In this document: positions 2,880-25,400 of the stretch, in pieces
Position numbering within the stretch: the first letter of the stretch is position 1
How the letters are laid out: each line of letters opens with the position of its first letter
DNA from: a virus
Taxonomy: Duplodnaviria > Heunggongvirae > Uroviricota > Caudoviricetes
Length of the DNA: 29,824 nucleotides
Virus record (IMG/VR): IMGVR_UViG_2609459820_000011
Span: 1 to 29,824 of that record
Reading direction: 5' to 3' (one strand)
The notes under the pieces: model-generated
What the model saw: only the letters and a program-made list of their open reading frames with translations
Databases searched by the model: none
What the model was told of the DNA's origin: nothing
Translations under genes and position numbers: made by a program

Positions 2880-3416
2880 TCACTCTCCTTTGATACGAAT
2901 GTCAGCGACGCGTAATGCGTGTTCTAGGTCAATCAGGTAAAGCCAACTGCCATTTTCTTTAGGTATCATGACTTGTCGCTCATCTGCATTTATCGGGTGT
3001 CCATATCGAAGGTCGTAGCGAGTCGGTAATTGAACTTCCCGCGCTTCCAGTTCAGCAATACGCTTGCACCCATCAGAGATAACTCCCTCGTAATACTCGC
3101 GCTGCTCGTTGAGTTTTGATTTTGCTGCTTCAAGCTCAACGCGCAGCTTCCCAACCGTAAGCGCAATATCCTCGTTCTCCTGGTCGCGGCGTTTGATGTA
3201 TTGCTGGTTTCTTTCCCGTTCATCCAGTAGTGCCAGCACGGTTTCTGGTCCGGTCAGAAATTTGAAGGCATTGAGCGCATCAATATCCACACCGTAATCT
3301 TTAAGTTCCTGTTCACTTAACAAATCATCATCAGCTGGCAACATTAACAGGCGTTCCATTGCTGGAATTGCACGTTCCGCCACCTCACGCAGTGACTGGT
3401 AATTAATTTCGCTCAC
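2880..3416 (-). CDS. Ea22-like (Ead/Ea22 family) coiled-coil protein, paralog 1
   Basis: GTG start preceded by AAGGAGG; start overlaps the upstream stop (GTGA); N-terminus MSEINYQSLREVAE parallels the neighbouring paralog; central coiled-coil-like region. Confidence 0.6.
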   Translation of the reverse strand: MSEINYQSLREVAERAIPAMERLLMLPADDDLLSEQELKDYGVDIDALNAFKFLTGPETVLALLDERERNQQYIKRRDQENEDIALTVGKLRVELEAAKSKLNEQREYYEGVISDGCKRIAELEAREVQLPTRYDLRYGHPINADERQVMIPKENGSWLYLIDLEHALRVADIRIKGE

Positions 3417-4099
3417 TGGTTGCCTCCTTTGCGAAGCTGGGCAGCAAAGTCAACTAACCACTCAGTCATTTCAACCTTCCCTACCAGGTCTGAACCAGGG
3501 TGCATACAGCAATCACTCTGCGCCGCTTTGAAATCCTTATACTCATATTCTTGGGCCACCAGATTTTTTGCAGCTTCTATAGCAGCATCCACCCCCTGCG
3601 CCCGGACTTCAGCCAGGAAAGCATCAGTGGTTGGCGTTTCAGGTATCTGTCTCCTCATCCGTTCTATTGCATGATTGAACCCGAAGTCTTCCGCGAGAGA
3701 TACGTCATCCATATTGTCATTGTCATCCTCAATATCCCGTGATTCTGGAATTGCAGACTTTATTCCCGCATTCTCCGCTGTCAGCGCCGCGCACTTGGCC
3801 TCAAGAGCGGCAACCACTTCCTGATGGTCTTTGTACTTAACGTATGAGCCGGAGATGTCATCACCTTCGGTGTTTAGCCATGCGTCATTGCAATTCACTG
3901 CGTAGGTTCTGATGCTCATGTTGATGCTCTCCCGCCCCTGACAGACGCCAGGCCAGTCAATAAAGTATCCGCAATGCCTACCCTCAGACGTGCGCGCAGG
4001 ATAAATGCCGTTATGACCCGGCAAAATATATGCTACCCATTCATCTTGCGTTGCCTGTTCCGCCGCCTCGCGCAGTGCCTGATAGTCAATCTTGCTCAC
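3413..4099 (-). CDS. Ea22-like (Ead/Ea22 family) protein, paralog 2
   Basis: GTG start preceded by AAGGAGG; N-terminus MSKIDYQALREAAE; first ~40 nt of the two paralogs are roughly 80 percent identical. Confidence 0.6.
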   Translation of the reverse strand: MSKIDYQALREAAEQATQDEWVAYILPGHNGIYPARTSEGRHCGYFIDWPGVCQGRESINMSIRTYAVNCNDAWLNTEGDDISGSYVKYKDHQEVVAALEAKCAALTAENAGIKSAIPESRDIEDDNDNMDDVSLAEDFGFNHAIERMRRQIPETPTTDAFLAEVRAQGVDAAIEAAKNLVAQEYEYKDFKAAQSDCCMHPGSDLVGKVEMTEWLVDFAAQLRKGGNQ

Positions 4100-4400
4100 T
4101 GGCAGCCTCCTTTGCCGGGATTTCTAACTTTTGAGTGGTTGTATCAAATTCAAACAACTTAACCACGTCATCAAACAGGACATAATCACCATCAGGATCT
4201 TCAGTCATATCTGCGCCACAATCCTGACCGCACGAGTCGCAACCATCCATATCAAGCTCGTATCGCTTCAGGTTTGCGATATTTGATAAATTCAGCGCCA
4301 GTACAGCCAGGTCATAAACCTCTTCGGCAGTGACATCGCTGTTCAGTCCCATTTCATGGCGATATATGATTTTTTCTACTCGTTGTTTTGTGATCGTCAT
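4086..4400 (-). CDS. Hypothetical protein (start taken at MTITKQR; the ORF extends to 4424 with TTG)
   Basis: ORF track 4086..4424; ATG at 4400 chosen by inspection. Confidence 0.45.
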   Translation of the reverse strand: MTITKQRVEKIIYRHEMGLNSDVTAEEVYDLAVLALNLSNIANLKRYELDMDGCDSCGQDCGADMTEDPDGDYVLFDDVVKLFEFDTTTQKLEIPAKEAASEQD

Positions 4401-4671
4401 TTTTCTCTTCACTCCGATATACAAGGATTACTACACCCCCTCTGCTGATTGCGCGAGCTGGATCCCCTGGTTCCATGCCGTCAATTCCGAAGGCTTCGGA
4501 AAACGCATTCATTGCCTTCTGGCGTTCATCCTGCTTACGGCGTTTATTCCATTTTTTCAGGAACAACAGCGACAGCCACCGTCCGCTGCAGAACACGATG
4601 TAAAAATAACCAAGGAGCGCCAGGCCGACATTCAGGGCCGTTTCTATGGTTAGTTGTGAGTCAGTTGCCAT
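4354..4671 (-). CDS. Hypothetical small membrane protein (N-terminal TM helix followed by a basic stretch)
   Basis: ATG start overlaps the upstream stop; hydrophobic segment LNVGLALLGYFYIVFCSG then KKWNKRRKQDERQK; 3' end overlaps the next gene by about 47 nt, which lowers confidence. Confidence 0.4.
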   Translation of the reverse strand: MATDSQLTIETALNVGLALLGYFYIVFCSGRWLSLLFLKKWNKRRKQDERQKAMNAFSEAFGIDGMEPGDPARAISRGGVVILVYRSEEKNDDHKTTSRKNHISP

Positions 4672-4909
4672 TTCTTACCTGTTTAAGTAACTGGTTGAAC
4701 ATAACACTTAGGGGATTGCTGTATCCAAACGGCAGATTGTTTACGCAGTACAGAATCGTTTTGTTTTTTTCTCCAGTTCGTACTATTAACCCATTCCACA
4801 ATAACCGTGATAATTCATTACTGATAGAAGTTGCGCTTCTTCCAAGTGCGAGGGATATATCTTCTCTACTGCAATCTGGATTTTCCTGGATATACTCGAT
4901 AACGGTCAT
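4661..4909 (-). CDS. Putative winged-helix DNA-binding protein (82 aa from MTVIEY)
   Basis: AAAGGGA RBS 6 nt upstream of the ATG at 4909; EDISLALGRSATSISNELSRLLWNGLI resembles a wHTH recognition region (by eye only). Confidence 0.45.
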   Translation of the reverse strand: MTVIEYIQENPDCSREDISLALGRSATSISNELSRLLWNGLIVRTGEKNKTILYCVNNLPFGYSNPLSVMFNQLLKQVRNGN

Positions 4910-17070: not shown

Positions 17071-17407
17071 GTGCCTGAACGTTAAATGCGCTGGTGGTTG
17101 TGAATGCCGACTGCGGCGGTATTTTGGCGTGACGGCGCAGGTGCCGTATACCGATGTCTGGACGCATAAACCGGTGCAGTTCTATCCCGGGAAACATCCG
17201 TGCGAAAAACCGGCAGAAATGCTGCAGCAGATAATCAGCGCTAGCAGTCGTCCGGGTGACCTGATTGCAGATTTTTTCATGGGGTCGGGTTCGACAGTGA
17301 AAGCGGCACTGGCGCTCGGGCGTCGTGCAATTGGCGTTGAGCTGGAGACTGAACGTTTTGAGCAGACGGTTCGGGAAGTACAGGATTTAGTCAGCCAGAA
17401 CGGATGA
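17069..17407 (+). pseudogene. C-terminal remnant of a beta-class N6-adenine/N4-cytosine DNA methyltransferase; no credible start and the N-terminal DPPY region is missing
   Basis: HPCEKPAEMLQQIISASSRPGDLIADFFMGSGSTVKAALALGRRAIGVE matches the C-terminal HP..KP and FxGSG(S/T)T motifs; ORF opens with TTG right after a T-run; first ATG leaves only 63 codons. Confidence 0.55.
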
Positions 17408-17447
17408 TATTGAAGAATTAATTACGCGTCGTTATTATGCGGCTCCC

Positions 17448-17523
17448 GGCCCTTTAGCTCAGTGGTGAGAGCGAGCGACTCATAATCGCCAGGTCGCTGG
17501 TTCAAATCCAGCAAGGGCCACCA
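17448..17523 (+). tRNA. ileZ: tRNA-Ile2 (anticodon CAU, ileX/ileZ-like) with encoded CCA
   Basis: Folded by hand: acceptor GGCCCTT/AAGGGCC, D-arm GCTC-AGTGGTGA-GAGC, anticodon loop CTCATAA, T-loop TTCAAAT, 3' CCA; very similar to E. coli ileX from memory. Confidence 0.85.
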
Positions 17524-17623
17524 TCACAAACCGCCATTAGCTTATCAGGAAGAGCAGACGACGCGATAACAGGGTTGTTGGTGCGGGGGCGGGTCCCCGA
17601 TGGCGGTCCATTATCGGTATTCA

Positions 17624-17697
17624 GCGTTGTTAGCTCAGCCGGACAGAGCAATTGCCTTCTAAGCAATCGGTCACTGGTTCGAATCCAGTACAGCGCG
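17624..17697 (+). tRNA. tRNA-Arg (anticodon UCU)
   Basis: Folded by hand: acceptor GCGTTGT/ACAGCGC (one G-U), anticodon stem ATTGC/GCAAT with loop CTTCTAA, T-arm ACTGG-TTCGAAT-CCAGT. Confidence 0.8.
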
Positions 17698-17837
17698 CTA
17701 TATTCATTCTTCCAGATTCCTTCCGGCAGAGCCTTATACTGAAATATACCTGGCTCAGGATATTGTTGAAAATATTATATGTTTGTCAAAAATAAAAGTT
17801 CTGTTAAGTATTGATTGAGTGTTTGTTATACGGTCTA

Positions 17838-18164
17838 ATGGTTTTTTCAGCATTAAATATTTATCATTCATATGGTGTGGGTAGAGTGAATATTGATGAG
17901 GCGTCGGGGTGTTTCATCCTTAGGCAGCGTATTGATATAGTCAATGCAGCACGAGCAAAGGCCTTCAGCCGTTTGACAGTTTTGTTCTGTACTCCTGATC
18001 GTCTTTCGGGAAGAGACGTTATTATTCTGAATAGTGATGCTATTCAGAGGGTTTGCGATGAGTTCATGGTTGCTAATTCAGAATTATTTGCTCTTGTTCA
18101 GGAGTACAACAGAATAGCCAGGACCTGTGGTATGGATGAACTTCGGATTACTCATCTGGGGTAG
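17838..18164 (+). CDS. Hypothetical protein (108 aa from the first ATG; ORF opens at 17811 with TTG); poor translation signals
   Basis: ORF track; sits at the stx-equivalent position downstream of the tRNAs; no RBS seen. Confidence 0.3.
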   Translation: MVFSALNIYHSYGVGRVNIDEASGCFILRQRIDIVNAARAKAFSRLTVLFCTPDRLSGRDVIILNSDAIQRVCDEFMVANSELFALVQEYNRIARTCGMDELRITHLG

Positions 18165-18556
18165 ATACATATCTGGATTATCACTTGTTACGGTAAAAAG
18201 TGATTGCTTACTGTTTTTGTGAGTGGCATTGCAGCAGCCGGATAATGTCAGTGCTGGCTGACGGTGTGCTGGTGGCGGGTGTGGTGGTTGTTGCTTTCCC
18301 GTTGCTGAAAAAGAAAACGCCAGACTGTTAGCCGGGTATCAGTTAGCGGGAGAAATTTTTAAATACTTCACAATTCAGGCGGTTGACTGTTGTCTGGTTT
18401 GCGGGGAGTTTGTTAAAAGAAACTGGCATGGTGAATCCCCCTGTGCGGAGGGGCAATCAGCGAGTAGGTATATGGGATAATCGCGGATTCAGGTGCTGGT
18501 ACTGAATTCACCGGGAGGCACCCGGCACCATGCAATGGCACATAGCGCCACTCTCC

Positions 18557-18590
18557 AGCCCCTCTCCGGAGGGGCTGTTTATATTGATTT
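18557..18590 (+). terminator. Intrinsic terminator
   Basis: AGCCCCTC tccg GAGGGGCT followed by GTTTATATTGATTTT. Confidence 0.55.
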
Positions 18591-18611
18591 TGTCAGATGT
18601 GAGTAAACTCC

Positions 18612-18947
18612 TTATGGACTTTGTTGTTTTAGTCCATAAGGACATATTTGCAGAGTGCAACGGTTATTAAAGCATTCATTCAATACGTTATCTGTATTTG
18701 TAGGACATTCCTGGCTGTTTTTGATTAAATTCCAGAATGTTTTATTGAATGGTGCTACGTTGTAAATGGTTACAGGTAGCACTTTGTTATTGAGCATGAT
18801 ACCTGTGTGAGTCAGTGTAAATATACTTTCAGGAGGTAAGAAAGCATCCGATTGATACCAGATTATTAATTTTATTTTACTCCATATGACTGAAAAAGAT
18901 ATTCCGCATGATGGCTGGATAACTGTATCAATCACAATCCACTTCAT
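18612..18947 (-). CDS. Hypothetical Cys-containing protein (111 aa) in an AT-rich cargo segment, opposite to late transcription
   Basis: AAGGAAA RBS 5 nt upstream of the ATG; AT-rich upstream region 18950-19190. Confidence 0.5.
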
Positions 18948-19207
18948 TTAGTTTCCTTGTTTATGTCTTGCTGGTGATGTTCTGAAAAGTATAAATGATA
19001 TTTTTGAATGTAAACCATAGAGCAGAATTATTTTTCTGATGTTGTTTATTGTTTATTTAAATGCAGGGTGGTTTATATCTCGTCTTGTAGTTTATCCATG
19101 CATATCTGCTTGATGATGAGGTTTTTATTTAAGGTATGGTTTTGTGTTTTTTCTGTATTACATGTCAGGTATTTTAAAGAATTATTTTTCAGATGGTGGA
19201 AAGAACC

Positions 19208-21169
19208 ATGGCATTTAAACACTATGATGTTGTCAGGGCGGCATCGCCGTCAGACCTTGCGAAACGACTGACACAAAAACTGAAGGAGGGGTGGCAGCCA
19301 TTTGGCAGTCCGGTGGCCATCACGCCTTATACCCTGATGCAGGCCATTGCGGCGGAAGGTGATGTCACCACACCTGTGGTGGTGAAGCCGTCGGATGGAG
19401 AAGGCGCAGTTATCAGCACCACCAGCAACCCGGAGTATTACTTTGTTGTTGCCCTGGCCGGGCAGTCAAACGGTATGGCGTATGGTGAAGGGCTTCCGCT
19501 GCCGGAGACATATGACCGTCCGGACCCGCGTATTAAACAGCTGGCGCGTCGCAGCACTGTCACGCCGGGTGGTGCGTCCTGTAACTACAATGACATTATT
19601 CCTGCGGACCACTGCCTGCATGATGTTCAGGATTTGAGTAAGTTTTCACACCCGAAAGCCAGCGCAGCTCAGTATGGATGCGTGGGGCAGGGATTACATA
19701 TCGCGAAGAAATTGTTGCCGTTTATTCCGGCGAATGCCGGTATTCTTCTGGTTCCGTGCTGCCGTGGTGGTTCTGCATTTTTGGCGGGCGATGAAGGTAC
19801 CTTCAGCGAATCCACCGGCGCAAGCGAGACCTCGGCACGCTGGGGTGTTGATAAGCCACTGTACAAGGACCTGCTTACCCGTACTCAGGCCGCACTGAAG
19901 GCCAACCCTAAAAATATTCTGCTTGCAGTGGTCTGGATGCAGGGCGAGTTTGATTTGAAACAGGGTGCATACGCCACTCAGCCGGGGCTGTTTGATTCCA
20001 TGGTGGAAAAATATCGTTCTGACCTGTCGGAATTCGGAGGTCAGTGTCTCGGGGGCTCTCCGTCATCGGTTCCCTGGATTTGTGGCGACACGACCTACTA
20101 CTGGAAGCAGACTTATTCTTCGCAATACGATGCGGTGTATGGTGCATACAAGACGAAATCCGCAAAAAAAATCTTCTTTGTGCCGTTTATGACGGATGAA
20201 AACGGGCGAAATGTGGGTACCAACGAGCCGTCAGAAGATCCGGATGTTGCGGATATTGGGTATTACGGAGCCGGTGGTCGAACGGACGCCAAAACCTGGA
20301 CGACGGCCGACCGTAAAACGCATTTTGGATCATGGGCACGTCGTGGGATTATTTCCGACCGTCTGGCAACGGCGATTCTTGTGCATGCCGGGAGAAACGC
20401 TGAATTCATTACCGGAAAACAGCCTGATACGGTGAAGCCCACCGGACCTTCCGGTGAAGGTACGGAGAGAGAGCCGGAAGCCCCGGTCAGTAACCGAACC
20501 CTGATGAGTCTGCTGGCGTCCGGCGAAGACCTGGCATCACAGGGCTGGCGCTATTATCACAAACCGGCGAGCGGAGACAATGTTAACAAAAACATTGCTG
20601 AAGCGGTGGTCAGTGATGCGGGGGCTACGGGAGGTAAGGCCCTGCAACTGAATAAACCGGAAAACCACATCTGGTTTCTGGAGCATGATGCAGCCGGACA
20701 GGGAGTGGAGTTACTGAAGAAGGGGGGACGTGTGAGCGTACGGTTTAAGTTGCCGGGTTCACTGGTGCCGAATCAGTTTGCCCTGGGCATTTACTGGCAG
20801 TTGTCGTCCCTGCCGGAGGGAGTGACGCTGGCAGAGGAAGGCAACGACATGCTGATGTCCTTCTTTCTGCAGACGGATGCGACGAACCTGAACGCGATGC
20901 ACCACAAGAAGCCGAATGCGAAGCTGGAAACGTTCGGGGTCTTTGATAACGGATGGCACACACTGGCTTTTGAGTTTGCCGGAAACAACAGCATTCAGGT
21001 GACGCCGGTACTGGATGAGAAACGGGGGACGCCGTTCACACTGGTGAAATCTCCGGCATCAGGGGCGGCGGACAAACTGCAACTGACAGGCATATCAAAG
21101 GCGGCGACATATACGCTGCTGATTGACAGTGTGAAGGTGGAAGTGAACAACGCGGACATCGCGGCATGA
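19208..21169 (+). CDS. nanS-p: Prophage NanS-p-type sialate O-acetylesterase (DUF1737 N-terminal domain plus SGNH/SASA esterase domain plus C-terminal domain)
   Basis: N-terminus MAFKHYDVVRAASPSDLAKRLTQKLKEGWQPFG; GQSN esterase motif (VALAGQSNGMAYGE); position upstream of the holin, as in Stx-type phages. Confidence 0.8.
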   Translation: MAFKHYDVVRAASPSDLAKRLTQKLKEGWQPFGSPVAITPYTLMQAIAAEGDVTTPVVVKPSDGEGAVISTTSNPEYYFVVALAGQSNGMAYGEGLPLPETYDRPDPRIKQLARRSTVTPGGASCNYNDIIPADHCLHDVQDLSKFSHPKASAAQYGCVGQGLHIAKKLLPFIPANAGILLVPCCRGGSAFLAGDEGTFSESTGASETSARWGVDKPLYKDLLTRTQAALKANPKNILLAVVWMQGEFDLKQGAYATQPGLFDSMVEKYRSDLSEFGGQCLGGSPSSVPWICGDTTYYWKQTYSSQYDAVYGAYKTKSAKKIFFVPFMTDENGRNVGTNEPSEDPDVADIGYYGAGGRTDAKTWTTADRKTHFGSWARRGIISDRLATAILVHAGRNAEFITGKQPDTVKPTGPSGEGTEREPEAPVSNRTLMSLLASGEDLASQGWRYYHKPASGDNVNKNIAEAVVSDAGATGGKALQLNKPENHIWFLEHDAAGQGVELLKKGGRVSVRFKLPGSLVPNQFALGIYWQLSSLPEGVTLAEEGNDMLMSFFLQTDATNLNAMHHKKPNAKLETFGVFDNGWHTLAFEFAGNNSIQVTPVLDEKRGTPFTLVKSPASGAADKLQLTGISKAATYTLLIDSVKVEVNNADIAA

Positions 21170-21525
21170 TAAAAAAAGCCGCCAGCGGCAGGAATGGAAG
21201 CTGGCGGAGGTAATCCCAATGGAGAATGTAAAGAAAAGATGCTTTCGACATCAATCATTTCTAAATGAAAACAGTTCTCATTGTCAACCATAACGGTAAG
21301 AAATTATGACATTTATTCATCAGGTAATGCTGTACTTCTGTATGGCAGTCTGTGTTATGTATCTTCTTTCGGGTGGGTACAGGGCAGTGCGCGATTTCTG
21401 GCGCAGGCAGATTGATAAAAGGGCCGCTGAGAGAATCAGCGCCAGTCAGTCAGCCGGAAGCAAACCCGAAGATCCGCTCATTCCGTAGTCACTTTCTTGA
21501 CAACACCTTTCAACGAGAAAATCCC

Positions 21526-21771
21526 ATGTCAGAAATCACATCCCTGGTCACTGCTGAGGCAGTGAAGGAAGTCCTGCGCTCTGAAGAAGTCCTGAGCGCA
21601 CTGAAACAGAAACTCCGCCAGAACCTTGAGTCGCGTCTTGATGCAGAAGTGGATGCCATTCTGGATGAGCTGCTGGGCGTACCAGCGGTTCCGGAGCCGG
21701 AAGGTATCGCGGGTGACGGGAGTGCTTCAGATGGCGGTGAACCCACACCTGACAGCGACATGATGATGTAA
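21526..21771 (+). CDS. Hypothetical acidic protein (81 aa)
   Basis: ORF between nanS-p and the holin; weak RBS. Confidence 0.4.
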
Positions 21772-21847
21772 GCCTGCGCAAGGGACCATCGGTGTGTGCC
21801 GGTGGTCTTTATATTGTTGTGAGCTTCCGGATAACGGGAGACGGGGT

Positions 21848-22063
21848 ATGTACCAGATGGAAAAAATCACAACAGGTGTGTCATACACCACGTCAGCGGT
21901 GGGAACGGGCTACTGGTTCCTGCAGTTGCTGGACAGGGTTTCCCCGTCTCAGTGGGCGGCAATAGGCGTGCTGGGGAGTCTGCTGTTTGGGCTGCTGACG
22001 TACCTGACTAACCTGTATTTCAAAATCAAAGAGGACCGGCGTAAGGCGGCGCGGGGAGAGTAA
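21848..22063 (+). CDS. Class II holin, phage 21 S-like (pinholin type) with dual start motif (Met1/Met4)
   Basis: 71 aa [10 protein letters not shown]...[50 protein letters not shown]; two TM segments; GGAGACGGGG RBS; resembles S21 from memory. Confidence 0.85.
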
Positions 22064-22067
22064 AGTG

Positions 22068-22874
22068 ATGAATAAAAAATATGAACTGGTTGTTAAGGGG
22101 ATAAATAATTACGGGGATAAGGTTACTGTTACTGTGAAGCCGGAAGGTGACGGGCAAGCGTCGCTGTTGTTGCCAGATGTGGCGATTAGTCTTGACCGTA
22201 CTGAAGGTGCCACGCTGGAGTTTTACGAAGCTGAGGCGAAAAAGCAGGCGAAGCAGTTTTTCATGGATGTTGCTGCCGGGTTATGTGAATGGAACGAACC
22301 GTTGCCGGAAAAGCGCCCCGTAATTTTAGAGGCGCAGGATGTGTTGATAACCTACAAAGGAAAGCTACCGGGAAGAATTACTTGTTCTCTGAAGATGCCG
22401 CCGTCAACACTGCGGTCAGAAAAAGAGGCGTCTTGTCTGCAGTCTGAGTACTCCATTACGGTTAAAAGTGCCGGAGAGGAAGGAAATAAACGTTATTTTA
22501 TTGCGTCTGCACCTGATAAAGATCAGGAATGGGAGTGTAACCGGCCATCCTTTGTTGTATACGGAGATGGCGGGAAAATAACCATCTCAGAAAATGGGAA
22601 ATTAACACCGCCATCGCACCAGCATAGTGAGGCGCTCATTGAATTTGCCATTGATTACCTGAAGAACAATAAAAAGCAGGGGCTGATGAAGCGCATTGGT
22701 CGTTGCATGGGATATCTGCAGGTAGCAGCTGAGATTGAAATGATGGCCAGTGGTGCTGACAATGATGCAGTTGTGCTGGAGGCTCTTCTGCGTGATTTTG
22801 ATAATACGCCCTTTAAGAAAGCACCTGTTGACTGGATGCAGCCGGGGATGACTTATCTGAAAGGGCGTATATAA
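22068..22874 (+). CDS. Hypothetical soluble protein (268 aa) inserted between holin and endolysin
   Basis: ATG 5 nt after the holin stop with GGAGAG RBS; no TM segment; no recognisable motif. Confidence 0.6.
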   Translation: MNKKYELVVKGINNYGDKVTVTVKPEGDGQASLLLPDVAISLDRTEGATLEFYEAEAKKQAKQFFMDVAAGLCEWNEPLPEKRPVILEAQDVLITYKGKLPGRITCSLKMPPSTLRSEKEASCLQSEYSITVKSAGEEGNKRYFIASAPDKDQEWECNRPSFVVYGDGGKITISENGKLTPPSHQHSEALIEFAIDYLKNNKKQGLMKRIGRCMGYLQVAAEIEMMASGADNDAVVLEALLRDFDNTPFKKAPVDWMQPGMTYLKGRI

Positions 22875-22883
22875 GGTGGCTCG

Positions 22884-23198
22884 TTATCTGTTGCTGGATA
22901 ATCGACTGAAGATGCGTTCTTTTTGTGTTTTTGCGTAATGATTGTCCCACTCACAATCAAGGTAGCTTAATTCTTCATTCAACCAGTTATTTATATTGGT
23001 CTTAATACGCATAAGCATGGGCTGTGTTAATGCTCTGGCGATAATGCCGAGAGTCACAGGTGTGAGATGTCCATACGGCTCAGCCTGAATGGATTTTACT
23101 GCATCGTGTTCTTGTGGGAGGAGTAAGAGGCACTCTGATTTTACCCGCTCATTTATGGCTTGCAGGCATAAATCATAATTATGTTGATCGTTATGCAT
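22884..23198 (-). CDS. Hypothetical protein (104 aa), convergent with the preceding gene and antisense to late transcription
   Basis: AGAGGA RBS 7 nt upstream of the ATG; stop is 9 nt from the stop of the 268-aa gene. Confidence 0.5.
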   Translation of the reverse strand: MHNDQHNYDLCLQAINERVKSECLLLLPQEHDAVKSIQAEPYGHLTPVTLGIIARALTQPMLMRIKTNINNWLNEELSYLDCEWDNHYAKTQKERIFSRLSSNR

Positions 23199-23326
23199 GG
23201 TTAATCCTCTACTGAAATTGTCAGATATATTTCAGCCATCAGGAAAAACGCCAGTGTCCTACCGCTGGCGGGCTGAAGATTTAACATATCCAGGGATTCG
23301 GAACCGATAAATCCTGATAAATATCC

Positions 23327-23860
23327 ATGAACACCAAAATCAAATATGGCCTGTCGGCTGCCGTTCTGGCGTTGATTGCCATCGGTGCGCCTGCGCCTGA
23401 TATTCTCGACCAGTTTCTGGATGAAAAAGAAGGTAACCACACAACGGCATACCGTGATGGTGCGGGTATCTGGACCATCTGCCGCGGTGCCACAATGGTG
23501 GATGGTAAACCTGTTATTCCGGGCATGAAACTGTCGAAGGAAAAATGCGACCAGGTTAATGCCATTGAACGGGATAAGGCGCTGGCATGGGTGGAGCGCA
23601 ATATTAAAGTTCCACTGACCGAACCACAGAAAGCGGGTATAGCGTCATTCTGTCCCTATAACATTGGCCCCGGTAAGTGTTTCCCGTCGACGTTTTATAA
23701 GCGGCTGAATGCTGGTGACCGCAGGGGAGCGTGTGAGGCGATTCGCTGGTGGATTAAGGACGGTGGCAGGGACTGCCGTATTCGCTCAAATAACTGTTAC
23801 GGTCAGGTATCCCGTCGTGACCAGGAGAGCGCGCTGGCGTGCTGGGGAATCGACAGATAA
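23327..23860 (+). CDS. R: SAR endolysin (GH24 lysozyme with N-terminal signal-anchor-release domain)
   Basis: N-terminal hydrophobic YGLSAAVLALIAIGAPA; catalytic-region motif EGNHTTAYRDGAGIWTICRG. Confidence 0.85.
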   Translation: MNTKIKYGLSAAVLALIAIGAPAPDILDQFLDEKEGNHTTAYRDGAGIWTICRGATMVDGKPVIPGMKLSKEKCDQVNAIERDKALAWVERNIKVPLTEPQKAGIASFCPYNIGPGKCFPSTFYKRLNAGDRRGACEAIRWWIKDGGRDCRIRSNNCYGQVSRRDQESALACWGIDR

Positions 23861-23952
23861 GCAGAATATTTTGCTAATAAATGACGTTGGCCAAGGCGGA
23901 CGGATAACACGAAATCCTGCGAACTGGCAAAATGTAAGTGAATAAAAGTAAA

Positions 23953-23990
23953 AACCCCGTTTGTTGGCAGCAAGCGGGGTTTTGTTTTTA
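23953..23990 (+). terminator. Strong intrinsic terminator downstream of the endolysin
   Basis: AACCCCGTTTG ttggcag CAAGCGGGGTT followed by TTGTTTTTA. Confidence 0.6.
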
Positions 23991-24054
23991 TGGCAGTAAG
24001 CTATGGGAGGCTGCCTTGATTGATTTTAGCAAACTGATTAGGGAGTTGCGACTC

Positions 24055-24150
24055 ATGATTAGTCAATTACCAAACTGGAAATTTTTGCTGGTCTGGAGCA
24101 TCCCTTTTTTATGGGTAGTATCCCAGTTAATTGTGGCAATTAAGGGGTAG
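24055..24150 (+). CDS. Small hydrophobic peptide A (31 aa)
   Basis: MISQLPNWKFLLVWSIPFLWVVSQLIVAIKG; AGGGAG 10 nt upstream. Confidence 0.3.
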   Translation: MISQLPNWKFLLVWSIPFLWVVSQLIVAIKG

Positions 24151-24152
24151 CT

Positions 24153-24284
24153 ATGTCAGACAAACTCATAACGCCGGCAAAGGTCCTGTGTGTGATTGTC
24201 GGTATTTCATTTTCACTAATGCTGGTTGCTCTTTTTCTGTCCCTCGCCTGGGTGATGTTGTCTTCGTCGGGGCTGCTGGGGTGA
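24153..24284 (+). CDS. Small membrane peptide B (43 aa)
   Basis: MSDKLITPAKVLCVIVGISFSLMLVALFLSLAWVMLSSSGLLG; AAGGGG RBS 5-6 nt upstream. Confidence 0.35.
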   Translation: MSDKLITPAKVLCVIVGISFSLMLVALFLSLAWVMLSSSGLLG

Positions 24285-24403
24285 CAGTGACTGATGACAT
24301 CAGCAGAGCGCTGGCTTTTGCTATTAAGTGGGTGGCTGTTGGTATTGCTGTGTCTCCGATGCTGTATGGGCTGGCAAAACTGGTCATTGCGCTGAAATCG
24401 TGA
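24281..24403 (+). CDS. Small membrane peptide C (~40 aa, GTG start), paralog of peptide D
   Basis: VTVTDDISRALAFAIKWVAVGIAVSPMLYGLAKLVIALKS; shares the RA(L/M)AFAI(K/R)xVA motif with peptide D. Confidence 0.3.
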   Translation: MTVTDDISRALAFAIKWVAVGIAVSPMLYGLAKLVIALKS

Positions 24404-24414
24404 ACTTTAAAAAG

Positions 24415-24501
24415 ATGAGTGCTGAACTTATTCGGGCAATGGCATTTGCCATTCGTATTGTGGCCATTGCTGTTCTGGTCTGGGCAATCCGTTGGTGGTG
24501 A
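24415..24501 (+). CDS. Small membrane peptide D (28 aa), paralog of peptide C; stop is 1 nt before the Rz start
   Basis: [28 protein letters not shown]. Confidence 0.3.
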
Positions 24502-24502
24502 T

Positions 24503-24970
24503 ATGAACCGTGTTCTGTGTGTGGTGATTATTGTCCTGCTGGTAGCCTGTGGTGTGCTTAGTCTGGGGCTGAATCATTACCGCGATAACGCCATCACCTA
24601 CAAAGCGCAGCGCGATAAAAAAGTCAGTGAGCTGAAACTGGCGAACGCGACAATTACTGATATGCAGATACGCCAGCGTGATGTCGCTGAACTTGATGCC
24701 AGATACTCGAGGGAATTAGCCGATGCGAGAGCTGAAAATGAAACTCTGCGTGCTGATGTTGCCGCTGGTCGTAAGCGCCTGCGGATCAACGCCACCTGCT
24801 CCGGTACCGTGCGTGAAGCCACCGGCACCTCCGGCGTGGATAATGCAACCGGCCCCCGACTGGCAGACACCGCTGAACGGGATTATTTCATCCTCAGAGA
24901 ACGGTTGATGACAATGCAGAAGCAGCTGGAAGGGGCACAGGACTATATCCGCACTCAGTGCCTGAACTAA
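24503..24970 (+). CDS. rz: Rz i-spanin
   Basis: N-terminal TM anchor [23 protein letters not shown] then coiled-coil region; Rz1 embedded in the +1 frame. Confidence 0.8.
24738..24908 (+). CDS. rz1: Rz1 o-spanin (proline-rich lipoprotein embedded within Rz)
   Basis: [15 protein letters not shown] lipobox then proline-rich [16 protein letters not shown]. Confidence 0.7.
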
Positions 24971-25179
24971 GTTTTGCTGATGCACCGTATCGTCGCTGTA
25001 TTCCCTCATTAACAGAGACCGCAGCCCGACAGGGAGACTCCTCTGCGCGAGTGTGCGGGGATAATCAAAAACGATACACACCGGGGTTTACCGCGTTAAC
25101 GGAGCGCGGCGTTGTCCCCTCATAGTCGCCAGTCCGGTGCGATGGTGGAAGAAACCGGACTACATTGAAAATGATAACC

Positions 25180-25400
25180 ATTATCATTTTTGCGGGTCCT
25201 TTCCGGCGATCCGGGCCGTTACGGGGCGGCGACCTCGCGGGTTTTCGCTATTTATGAAAATTTTCCGGGAACCATGTCCGGTTTCTCTTCAAGTTAACTA
25301 TATGAAAAATAAAAAAAGAGGTCTTCTGTGAACCGGACATGCACAAAAAATAGACATGTAAGCCGGACATGACCGGTTTTGTTGTGATTGTGAAGTGAGA
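25180..25400. other. cos site (cosN with flanking cosB-like repeats)
   Basis: ACGGGGCGGCGACCTCGCGGGTTTTCGCTATTTATGAAAATTTTCCGG matches the lambda cohesive-end region from memory (cosN GGGCGGCGACCT at 25224-25235); three CCGGACATG-type repeats between cosN and the Nu1 start. Confidence 0.7.

Follow-up and report, generated by a model that had tools for sequence, protein, structure and literature searches.

The window analysed here is a stretch of 29,824 nucleotides, positions 1 to 29,824 of the IMG/VR virus record IMGVR_UViG_2609459820_000011. Its lysis region opens on the plus strand with a class II holin of the phage 21 S type (71 aa, 21848 to 22063), recognised by Pfam Phage_holin_2_1 at 112.8 bits and as a holin in PHROGs, and closes, also on the plus strand, with a SAR-type endolysin of the phage lysozyme type (177 aa, 23327 to 23860), recognised by Pfam Phage_lysozyme and as an endolysin in PHROGs. 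The two are separated by 1263 nt. Within this space lie a 268-aa open reading frame on the plus strand (22068 to 22874), a YdfR-family fusion consisting of a DUF1327 N-domain, a variable middle and a C-terminal domain, and a gene on the minus strand (22884 to 23198) that is convergent with it and encodes a soluble five-helix protein of 104 aa. A 4-nt spacer (22064 to 22067) separates the holin from the long open reading frame, whose ATG at 22068, 5 nt past the holin stop, is preceded by GGAGAG. The ATG of the 104-aa gene has GAGGA 6–7 nt ahead of it, and the stop codons of the two open reading frames stand 9 nt apart (22875 to 22883). Both proteins are soluble, with maximum Kyte-Doolittle 19-residue windows of 0.87 for the 268-aa and 1.16 for the 104-aa protein; neither has a hydrophobic or membrane segment, unlike antiholins or endolysin regulators. 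A preliminary description of this DNA had reported the two convergent open reading frames, a gap of about 1.26 kb between holin and endolysin, a start of the long frame 5 nt after the holin stop with a ribosome-binding site of its own, a good ribosome-binding site for the minus-strand gene, 9 nt between the two stops and a soluble long product. All of this, with every coordinate, agrees with what was found on checking.

What is the long open reading frame? Residues 1–100 match Pfam DUF1327 (PF07041) at 139.1 bits against a gathering cut-off of 25, and residues 1–74 are 47% identical to YdfR of Escherichia coli K-12. In the K-12 Qin prophage, ydfR sits between essQ (holin) and rrrQ (endolysin), and the same S-ydfR-R order is present in BP-4795 and in many Stx1a and Stx2a phages. 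The DNA of the N-terminal DUF1327/YdfR module of the window (aa 1–114, 22068 to 22409, plus strand) is 91% identical to the short ydfR of BP-4795, and N-terminal ydfR DNA is carried by at least 2,709 of 5,426 complete E. coli genomes. By these comparisons, the first approximately 112 codons of the 268-aa frame are the resident late gene ydfR and no insert. The preliminary description had taken it as the norm that the holin is followed directly by the endolysin; because S-ydfR-R is a conserved synteny, present in about half of the complete E. coli genomes, this rule fails for the phage group concerned. It had also named an observation that would speak against a newly inserted system, namely that the 268-aa protein is a conserved late protein with the same synteny in related phages, and this applies to the first approximately 112 codons only, the rest of the open reading frame being extra. 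The statement that neither protein shows a recognisable motif stands for the 104-aa protein, which has no match in Pfam or NCBIfam, and falls for the 268-aa protein with its DUF1327 match of 139 bits.

The window protein thus resembles K-12 YdfR in its family match and in its place between a class II holin, which it follows directly, and the endolysin. It differs in architecture: K-12 YdfR is a single domain of 103 aa, whereas the window protein has 268 aa, with a middle segment and a C-terminal domain of 112 aa. Score and position place it in the DUF1327 family; its size is not that of a single-domain member of about 100–115 aa. YdfR-family proteins are in fact strongly mosaic. Behind a DUF1327 head of about 112 aa the protein may stop, run on into a coiled-coil segment or carry one of several C-terminal ends, and the family is therefore modular, the head being joined to at least three alternative C-terminal ends. 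Long forms such as the 268-aa protein constitute a sub-architecture of this family. RefSeq annotates the 268-aa frame as a partial pseudogene, but the frame is intact and the label is wrong, an artefact of model length. The AlphaFold2 model of the long protein is poor (pLDDT 52), with two moderately confident parts, the DUF1327 head and a C-domain of three strands plus helices, and a disordered middle between them.

A functional lead comes from K-12. In K-12 YdfR, residues 1–72 are the part that binds the catalytic N-terminal domain of RNase E; RNase G is bound more weakly (2026 study, PMC13232886). The same study found that the protein co-purifies with RNA, is non-toxic and is silent in normal growth, and that its overexpression has little effect on the transcriptome (PMC13232886). 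A genetic screen, as cited there, scored K-12 ydfR as important for cell envelope integrity (PMC13232886). The RNase E binding is known for K-12 YdfR only and is extrapolated to the N-domain of the window protein at 47% identity.

Behind the DUF1327 module comes a variable middle (aa 115–156, 22410 to 22535, plus strand) that is predicted to be disordered and is common to stand-alone C-domain proteins of 213 aa. The C-terminal domain proper (aa 157–268, 112 aa, 22536 to 22871, plus strand), joined in frame to ydfR, is the conserved partner of the minus-strand gene and carries the conserved motifs GRCMGYLQVAAEIE and PPFK..P..W..PG..YLK.RI. It also occurs in proteins that lack DUF1327, of 185–213 aa and with a coiled coil at the start, some of which are encoded directly after a holin gene. 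A profile search with the C-domain returned only Escherichia and Shigella proteins, the fusions among them being to DUF1327 and to no informative domain.

Alignment with short-ydfR phages delimits the additional DNA. A block of 866 bp (approximately 22395 to 23260) is absent from BP-4795, as seen in a global alignment and in a multiple alignment of the junctions, and it holds codons ~110–268 of the long open reading frame, the 104-aa gene and the leader of that gene. Its flanks are 91–93% identical to BP-4795, which has a short YdfR of 114 aa. The insertion between holin and endolysin proposed in the preliminary description is thus borne out in part: comparison of the holin-endolysin junctions in related prophages does show an insertion-type difference, but the cassette excludes the ydfR head, as the first approximately 112 codons belong to the resident gene. 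The right junction of the block falls inside a hairpin upstream of the 104-aa gene. From the ATCC 25922 and Stx2_95 loci the small gene alone is missing; these have a long YdfR with C-domain, followed about 40 nt on by the endolysin, and no minus-strand gene. The two types of deletion, loss of the small gene and loss of the whole block as in BP-4795, share a junction at the hairpin. Did the short forms come before the long ones? More probably they arose by deletion, since remote stand-alone cassettes that lack ydfR do have the hairpin arm.

The window matches a lambdoid, non-Stx prophage of E. coli SCU-484 at 100% identity, and the block recurs unchanged in the enteroaggregative strain (EAEC) 55989 and among O104:H4 strains. 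The Stx2-converting phage 86 has the block at 96% identity, the two genes there being gp05 and gp06. In 24 IMG/VR contigs the block is 100% conserved, and in 54 complete genomes it is conserved at 99% or more.

Is the small minus-strand gene a gene at all? Homologues of its product remain 104–107 aa long and keep a set of invariant residues down to 28% identity. Pairwise dN/dS between its alleles is 0.24–0.49, one near-identical pair (dS 0.015) excepted, and between C-domain alleles it is 0.17–0.38; the flanking endolysin and holin genes give 0.04–0.15. The 104-aa gene and the C-domain are thus under purifying selection, and their proteins evolve several times faster than those of the lysis genes. 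AlphaFold2 predicts the 104-aa protein as a confident five-helix bundle (mean pLDDT 89.8 from a 12-sequence alignment), so that of the structure predictions proposed at the outset the small protein gave a good model and the long protein a poor one. GC content falls to 0.41–0.445 over 22800–23199, compared with 0.47–0.56 in the flanks. The 104-aa frame and the C-domain are real coding genes, and the earlier proposal of a genuine gene running against late transcription is well founded in the dN/dS values and the conserved length. An N-terminal extension of the small protein, annotated as 118 aa in some genomes, can be rejected as not conserved: in the window an in-frame stop lies upstream, and in other alleles the reading frame shifts there. 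A profile search of 1.84 billion representative proteins yielded only 21 relatives of the 104-aa protein, and a large part of these are truncated.

Upstream of the small gene, on the minus strand, are a leader (23199 to 23248) with the GAGGA ribosome-binding site at approximately 23205 to 23209 and a conserved hairpin with a 5' TCAGCC motif (23249 to 23276) that is near-invariant in remote loci. Read on the strand of the small gene, the hairpin is TCAGCC-CGCCAGCG-loop-CACTGGCG, followed by a U-run at 23244–23248; across lineages its core is TCAGCCCGCCAGTG-N-CACTGGCG. A 30-nt element, TCAGCCCGCCAGTG-loop-CACTGGCGTT, is almost invariant among the remote loci L010 and L015-17 and all E. coli alleles, where the surrounding non-coding DNA cannot be aligned. 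The loop varies in length from 4 to 8 nt, and the hairpin folds in every locus tested. Each of the three single-sided substitutions leaves a G-U pair when read on the small-gene strand; on the late strand it would produce an A-C mismatch. Because the element is conserved beyond its flanks, and because its substitutions fit pairing only on that strand, it is most likely an RNA element of the small-gene transcript; with no double compensatory change among the substitutions, this support is suggestive only. The hairpin may be a 5' stem-loop or, as U's follow it, an upstream terminator or insulator. A role as a protein operator is unlikely in view of the varying loop length.

The preliminary description had asked whether the small gene is expressed from a promoter of its own in 23199–23326. 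This segment has no consensus sigma-70 promoter on the minus strand, the best candidates being weak matches at 7–8 of 12 positions. No terminator follows the gene: there are 9 nt to the convergent stop and no minus-strand terminator within 22068–22874, the nearest one downstream lying inside the holin gene at 21889–21875. The sole hairpin with a U-run near the 104-aa gene is the one upstream of it. An Rfam search of 21500–25200 gave no match.

The association of the two genes extends well beyond the window. Among the first 101 loci fetched, all 34 with a homologue of the small gene have a convergent C-domain homologue, full-length or remnant, close by. These include remote lineages at 37–48% identity, namely L010, L011-14 (with a remnant only) and L015-17. 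In L018, where the small protein is 28% identical, the C-domain falls under the tblastn threshold, yet its motif is visible. Altogether, remote homologues of the small protein at 28–48% identity were traced to contigs, and in several lineages they are convergent with a C-domain gene. In L010, a prophage whose packaging genes are Gifsy-1-like, the small gene is convergent with a late-strand gene of 185 aa, and the final 108 residues of that gene's product share 42% identity with the window C-domain (residues 162–268). L015-17 and L018 show the same convergent layout, with 3' ends that overlap by up to 33 nt, beside a holin of the lambda S type or the HP1 type. In the relatives taken together, the spacing between the convergent genes ranges from −33 to +19 nt. 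The pair stands upstream of the holin in L010, L015-16 and L018, beside three different holin families. Other enterobacterial lambdoid prophages thus carry a stand-alone convergent pair, a coiled-coil plus C-domain protein of 185–213 aa and a protein of about 105 aa, situated in the holin-endolysin gap or immediately ahead of the holin gene. Since remote homologues are again convergent with a C-domain gene, some of them at other positions, the C-domain, the small gene and the hairpin can be regarded as an old, mobile two-gene block. In partial support of the preliminary description, the small gene and the C-domain gene travel together in remote relatives.

The two genes are not, on the other hand, an obligate pair. 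The C-domain is present in 787 of 5426 complete E. coli genomes, at 970 places, and the small gene in 95 of the 5426, at 132 places, which leaves about 86% of the C-domain copies without the small gene. The reverse is also found. One lineage has an intact small gene, P0135 (16 contigs), opposite a C-domain of which only a remnant of 65 aa is left. In L108-110 the holin-endolysin gap has a small gene, its C-terminus altered, but no C-domain, and in L111 the gene is frameshifted; several relatives of the small gene that lack the C-domain are truncated or frameshifted. Either gene can thus stand without its partner. Most E. coli copies have lost the small gene, and one lineage has lost the C-domain instead. 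The distances between alleles do not co-vary either: L006 and L007 are the closest small-gene pair (the near-identical L003-L076 pair aside), yet they are the most distant C-domain pair, which points to recombination between the small gene and the C-domain.

Database searches give little further guidance. Searches of the window proteins in Pfam, NCBIfam, PADLOC and PDB sequences found DUF1327 as the sole family, so that only the head of the long protein is recognised. The 104-aa protein and the C-domain have no match in these four collections or in fold libraries, the isolated C-domain included (families, PDB sequences and fold libraries), and the remote homologues gave nothing in Pfam, NCBIfam, PADLOC and PDB-sequence searches. 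In PADLOC-DB 2.0 no family was hit at E<=1 by the two window proteins or at E<=0.1 by two remote homologues, and the defence or exclusion role that had been suggested for the minus-strand gene finds no support there. Among the entries of Pfam, NCBIfam, PADLOC and PDB, no known toxin, antitoxin or immunity family resembles either window protein. A 'DUF1823' label on an alternative minus-strand gene of PhiR5_1 is a sub-threshold match. PHROGs assigns both proteins to families of unknown function only, phrog_1853 for the 104-aa and phrog_1085 for the 268-aa protein. Literature searches on DUF1327, on ydfR with holin, on the accessions and on the PHROG identifiers returned no description of the block. 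The designation 'undescribed' thus holds for the 104-aa gene and the C-domain, neither of which has an account in Pfam, NCBIfam, PADLOC, PDB or the literature. The locus is an undescribed accessory block of the lambdoid lysis region, of narrow distribution in Escherichia, Shigella and a few other enterobacterial prophages. At present only synteny argues for a new 'system'.

Morons of the lambda bor type, which are expressed in the lysogen, are one known parallel to the small gene, which likewise lies on the strand opposite to the late operon, in or next to the lysis genes. It is moron-like too in its lower GC, its absence from close relatives and its frequent gain or loss: an insertion relative to related phages and a deviating base composition are both found, and a terminator of its own is not. 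Bor is a lipoprotein with its own mapped promoter. The 104-aa protein, in contrast, is cytoplasmic, with weak promoter candidates only and no terminator found, and its gene differs from bor-type morons in being ancestrally paired with a late-strand gene. A second likeness is to the operons of pore-former colicins, in which toxin and lysis genes flank an immunity gene of opposite orientation. It is a likeness of layout only: a long gene with a variable C-terminus, a convergent small gene, few nucleotides between the stops and a lysis gene adjoining. The immunity proteins of pore-former colicins are integral membrane proteins, whereas the small protein here is soluble; there is no similarity to colicin domains, and the 'toxin' occurs mostly without its 'immunity' gene. 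Type I toxin-antitoxin loci (par/Fst, txpA-RatA) resemble the pair in having convergent units whose transcripts must overlap at their 3' ends, but the pair consists of two sizeable soluble proteins and not of a small hydrophobic toxin and a non-coding RNA. More generally, the strict co-occurrence and the family similarity expected of toxin-antitoxin or effector-immunity pairs are both absent.

What might the two genes do? The reading that we prefer, with a probability of roughly 0.45, is that the locus combines a late YdfR-type, RNase E-binding fusion protein with a small binding protein that is expressed from the prophage and encoded by an autonomous, moron-like unit. The long open reading frame would be translated from the late, Q-dependent transcript; as it is close-coupled to S inside the Q-antiterminated late operon, it should be made along with the lysis proteins. 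Its N-domain, like K-12 YdfR, would dock on the catalytic half of RNase E or bind RNA, and would in this way deliver the C-domain to one or the other in the late phase of infection. That the long protein may carry the C-domain there is suggested by the 47% identity over the part of YdfR that binds RNase E. The 104-aa gene, read against the late operon, would be expressed in the lysogen or at an early stage of infection, from an mRNA that would begin at the hairpin or shortly ahead of it and so bear it as a 5' stem-loop. In lytic growth the convergent, antiterminated late transcription would shut the gene off, and it is because of this silencing that expression is placed in the lysogen or early infection. 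The product would be a small cytoplasmic binding protein, neither an enzyme nor a membrane protein, the simplest reading of a protein that is small, soluble and helical and has no catalytic motif. It would benefit the prophage state by itself, and may bind the C-domain protein without needing it. Candidate targets may be the C-domain protein, a host factor or an incoming phage.

Do the two proteins instead cooperate? The C-domain protein could be a late effector on the host, acting on RNA decay or the envelope, and the 104-aa protein its dedicated antagonist, made in the lysogen against leaky late expression; or both together could form a defence or exclusion switch. The convergent pairing has been kept over long divergence and at different genomic positions, with spacings from −33 to +19 nt; the small gene is almost always beside a C-domain, and the truncated and frameshifted relatives that lack one could mean decay without the partner, which would favour a functional pair. 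The opposite-strand gene beside a lysis gene also recalls the colicin layout discussed above. A dedicated antagonist is hard to reconcile with the 86% of C-domain copies that are tolerated alone in complete E. coli genomes, with the intact P0135 gene beside a mere remnant, with allele distances that do not track (L006-L007) and with the lack of any PADLOC, Pfam or toxin-antitoxin family match, and we consider cooperation rather unlikely. A bolder version would make the C-domain and the 104-aa protein a phage two-component switch, in which a late effector, directed to RNase E or RNA by the YdfR module, reprograms host RNA decay at lysis and a prophage-expressed inhibitor, whose mRNA bears a dedicated, conserved 5' hairpin and is silenced by convergent late transcription, checks the effector or uses it to exclude related phages. 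This version is quite unlikely.

The remaining explanations fare less well still. The YdfR fusion, the 104-aa protein or both might tune the pinholin and SAR-endolysin pathway. Such a role in lysis timing would explain why the genes stay beside a holin, whichever holin family is concerned, and it fits both the close translational coupling of the long open reading frame to S across a 4-nt spacer and the envelope phenotype attributed to K-12 ydfR in the screen that PMC13232886 cites. Known antiholins and releasins, however, differ from these two soluble proteins, which have no transmembrane segment; phage 21 and lambda lyse without either gene, both genes are often lost, and no lysis PHROG is similar, all of which makes the role distinctly improbable. 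Alternatively, the minus-strand transcript itself might be the functional product, an antisense RNA reaching into the long open reading frame and the holin gene that damps leaky late expression, the 104-aa frame being incidental or secondary. The lack of a terminator between the small gene and the long open reading frame or the holin is in line with this, as are the conserved RNA hairpin on the 5' side and the convergent overlap kept in relatives. Yet a length of 104–107 aa maintained to 28% identity, dN/dS of 0.24–0.49 and a confident AlphaFold2 fold are signatures of a translated protein, and an antisense function of this kind appears very improbable. As to the idea that nothing here is functional and that the genes are decaying remnants in a defective prophage, the RefSeq partial-pseudogene label and the many truncated variants of both genes in databases might suggest it. 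It is hardly credible and already largely refuted: the open reading frame is intact, the same block sits in the functional Stx2-converting phage 86, and the conservation across the 24 contigs and 54 complete genomes, together with purifying selection, speaks against decay.

For the biology of lambdoid prophages the block matters in several respects. YdfR-family genes are present in the lysis cassettes of about half of the complete E. coli genomes, and RNase E binding is the only functional lead to them. The block itself is carried by clinically important strains, including the O104:H4 outbreak lineage, EAEC 55989, O157 and O145 STEC, and by Stx2 phage 86. Because RefSeq systematically mislabels the long open reading frame as a pseudogene, comparative screens and screens for defence islands miss the C-domain. 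The link to RNase E and the conserved RNA hairpin make the block experimentally approachable. If the pair acts on RNA decay or on superinfecting phages, it would represent a new kind of prophage accessory function; if it does not, it would be a typical moron of narrow distribution.

The site of the small gene can hold another convergent reading frame. In two related loci, L002 (3349-3609, minus strand) and L107 (814-1074, minus strand), an 86-aa open reading frame of family phrog_2572 differs from the small gene of the window, yet it occupies the same site, where it overlaps the 3' end of a 183/211-aa YdfR variant. The right-flank sequence that precedes it is as at the window site, including a variant of the hairpin. 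The frame is about 90-100% conserved in eight phage records; an assignment to DUF1823 was rejected, as the match was sub-threshold. A second overlap is found in locus L105, where a 305-aa YdfR variant (cluster P0116; 2501-3418, plus strand) lies opposite a 233-aa open reading frame (3167-3868, minus strand) that covers its last ~250 nt. One of these two frames is probably not real. The YdfR variant is widespread, appearing in 268 listed blocks of the contig collection; the 233-aa frame matched nothing in Pfam, PHROG or PADLOC. The 511 nt ahead of the endolysin in L105 carry no annotation.

RefSeq/PGAP labels intact 268-aa and 296-aa frames 'YdfR family protein, partial pseudogene, missing C-terminus' (window 22068-22874, and loci L005, L009, L103 and L104). 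The C-domain is without annotation in hundreds of genomes, and many of its matches show 'none' as the annotated feature.

The endolysin-Rz gap (window 23861-24502) contains three tiny hydrophobic open reading frames, e.g. 24153-24284 (43 aa), and a strong terminator-like hairpin (23951-23983, plus strand) that lies within the late operon. In related phages this gap is occupied by ant, and in strain A34 by a Panacea-domain gene together with ParD/ParE; the gap thus represents a second accessory-gene hot spot. Upstream of the lysis genes (window ~17400-21200; L009 15381-19102) lie tRNA genes for Ile and Arg, a minus-strand iraM-like anti-adapter gene and a gene for a nanS-p-like SASA/DUF1737/DUF6645 esterase. 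The window prophage has no stx genes. The prophage of loci L108-L110, which has a lone small-gene homologue, encodes an Enterotoxin_a/Scabin-like ADP-ribosyltransferase (3913-4704, minus strand) directly upstream of holin, the position of stx in Stx phages.

The TCAGCC hairpin (window 23249-23276, minus strand) is present at the same site in loci L003, L006, L007, L010, L015 and L076 and is more conserved than the neighbouring proteins. Two independent kinds of deletion, one removing the small gene and the other the whole 866-bp block, have junctions at this position, and therefore the hairpin may constitute a recombination or deletion hot spot in addition to an RNA element.
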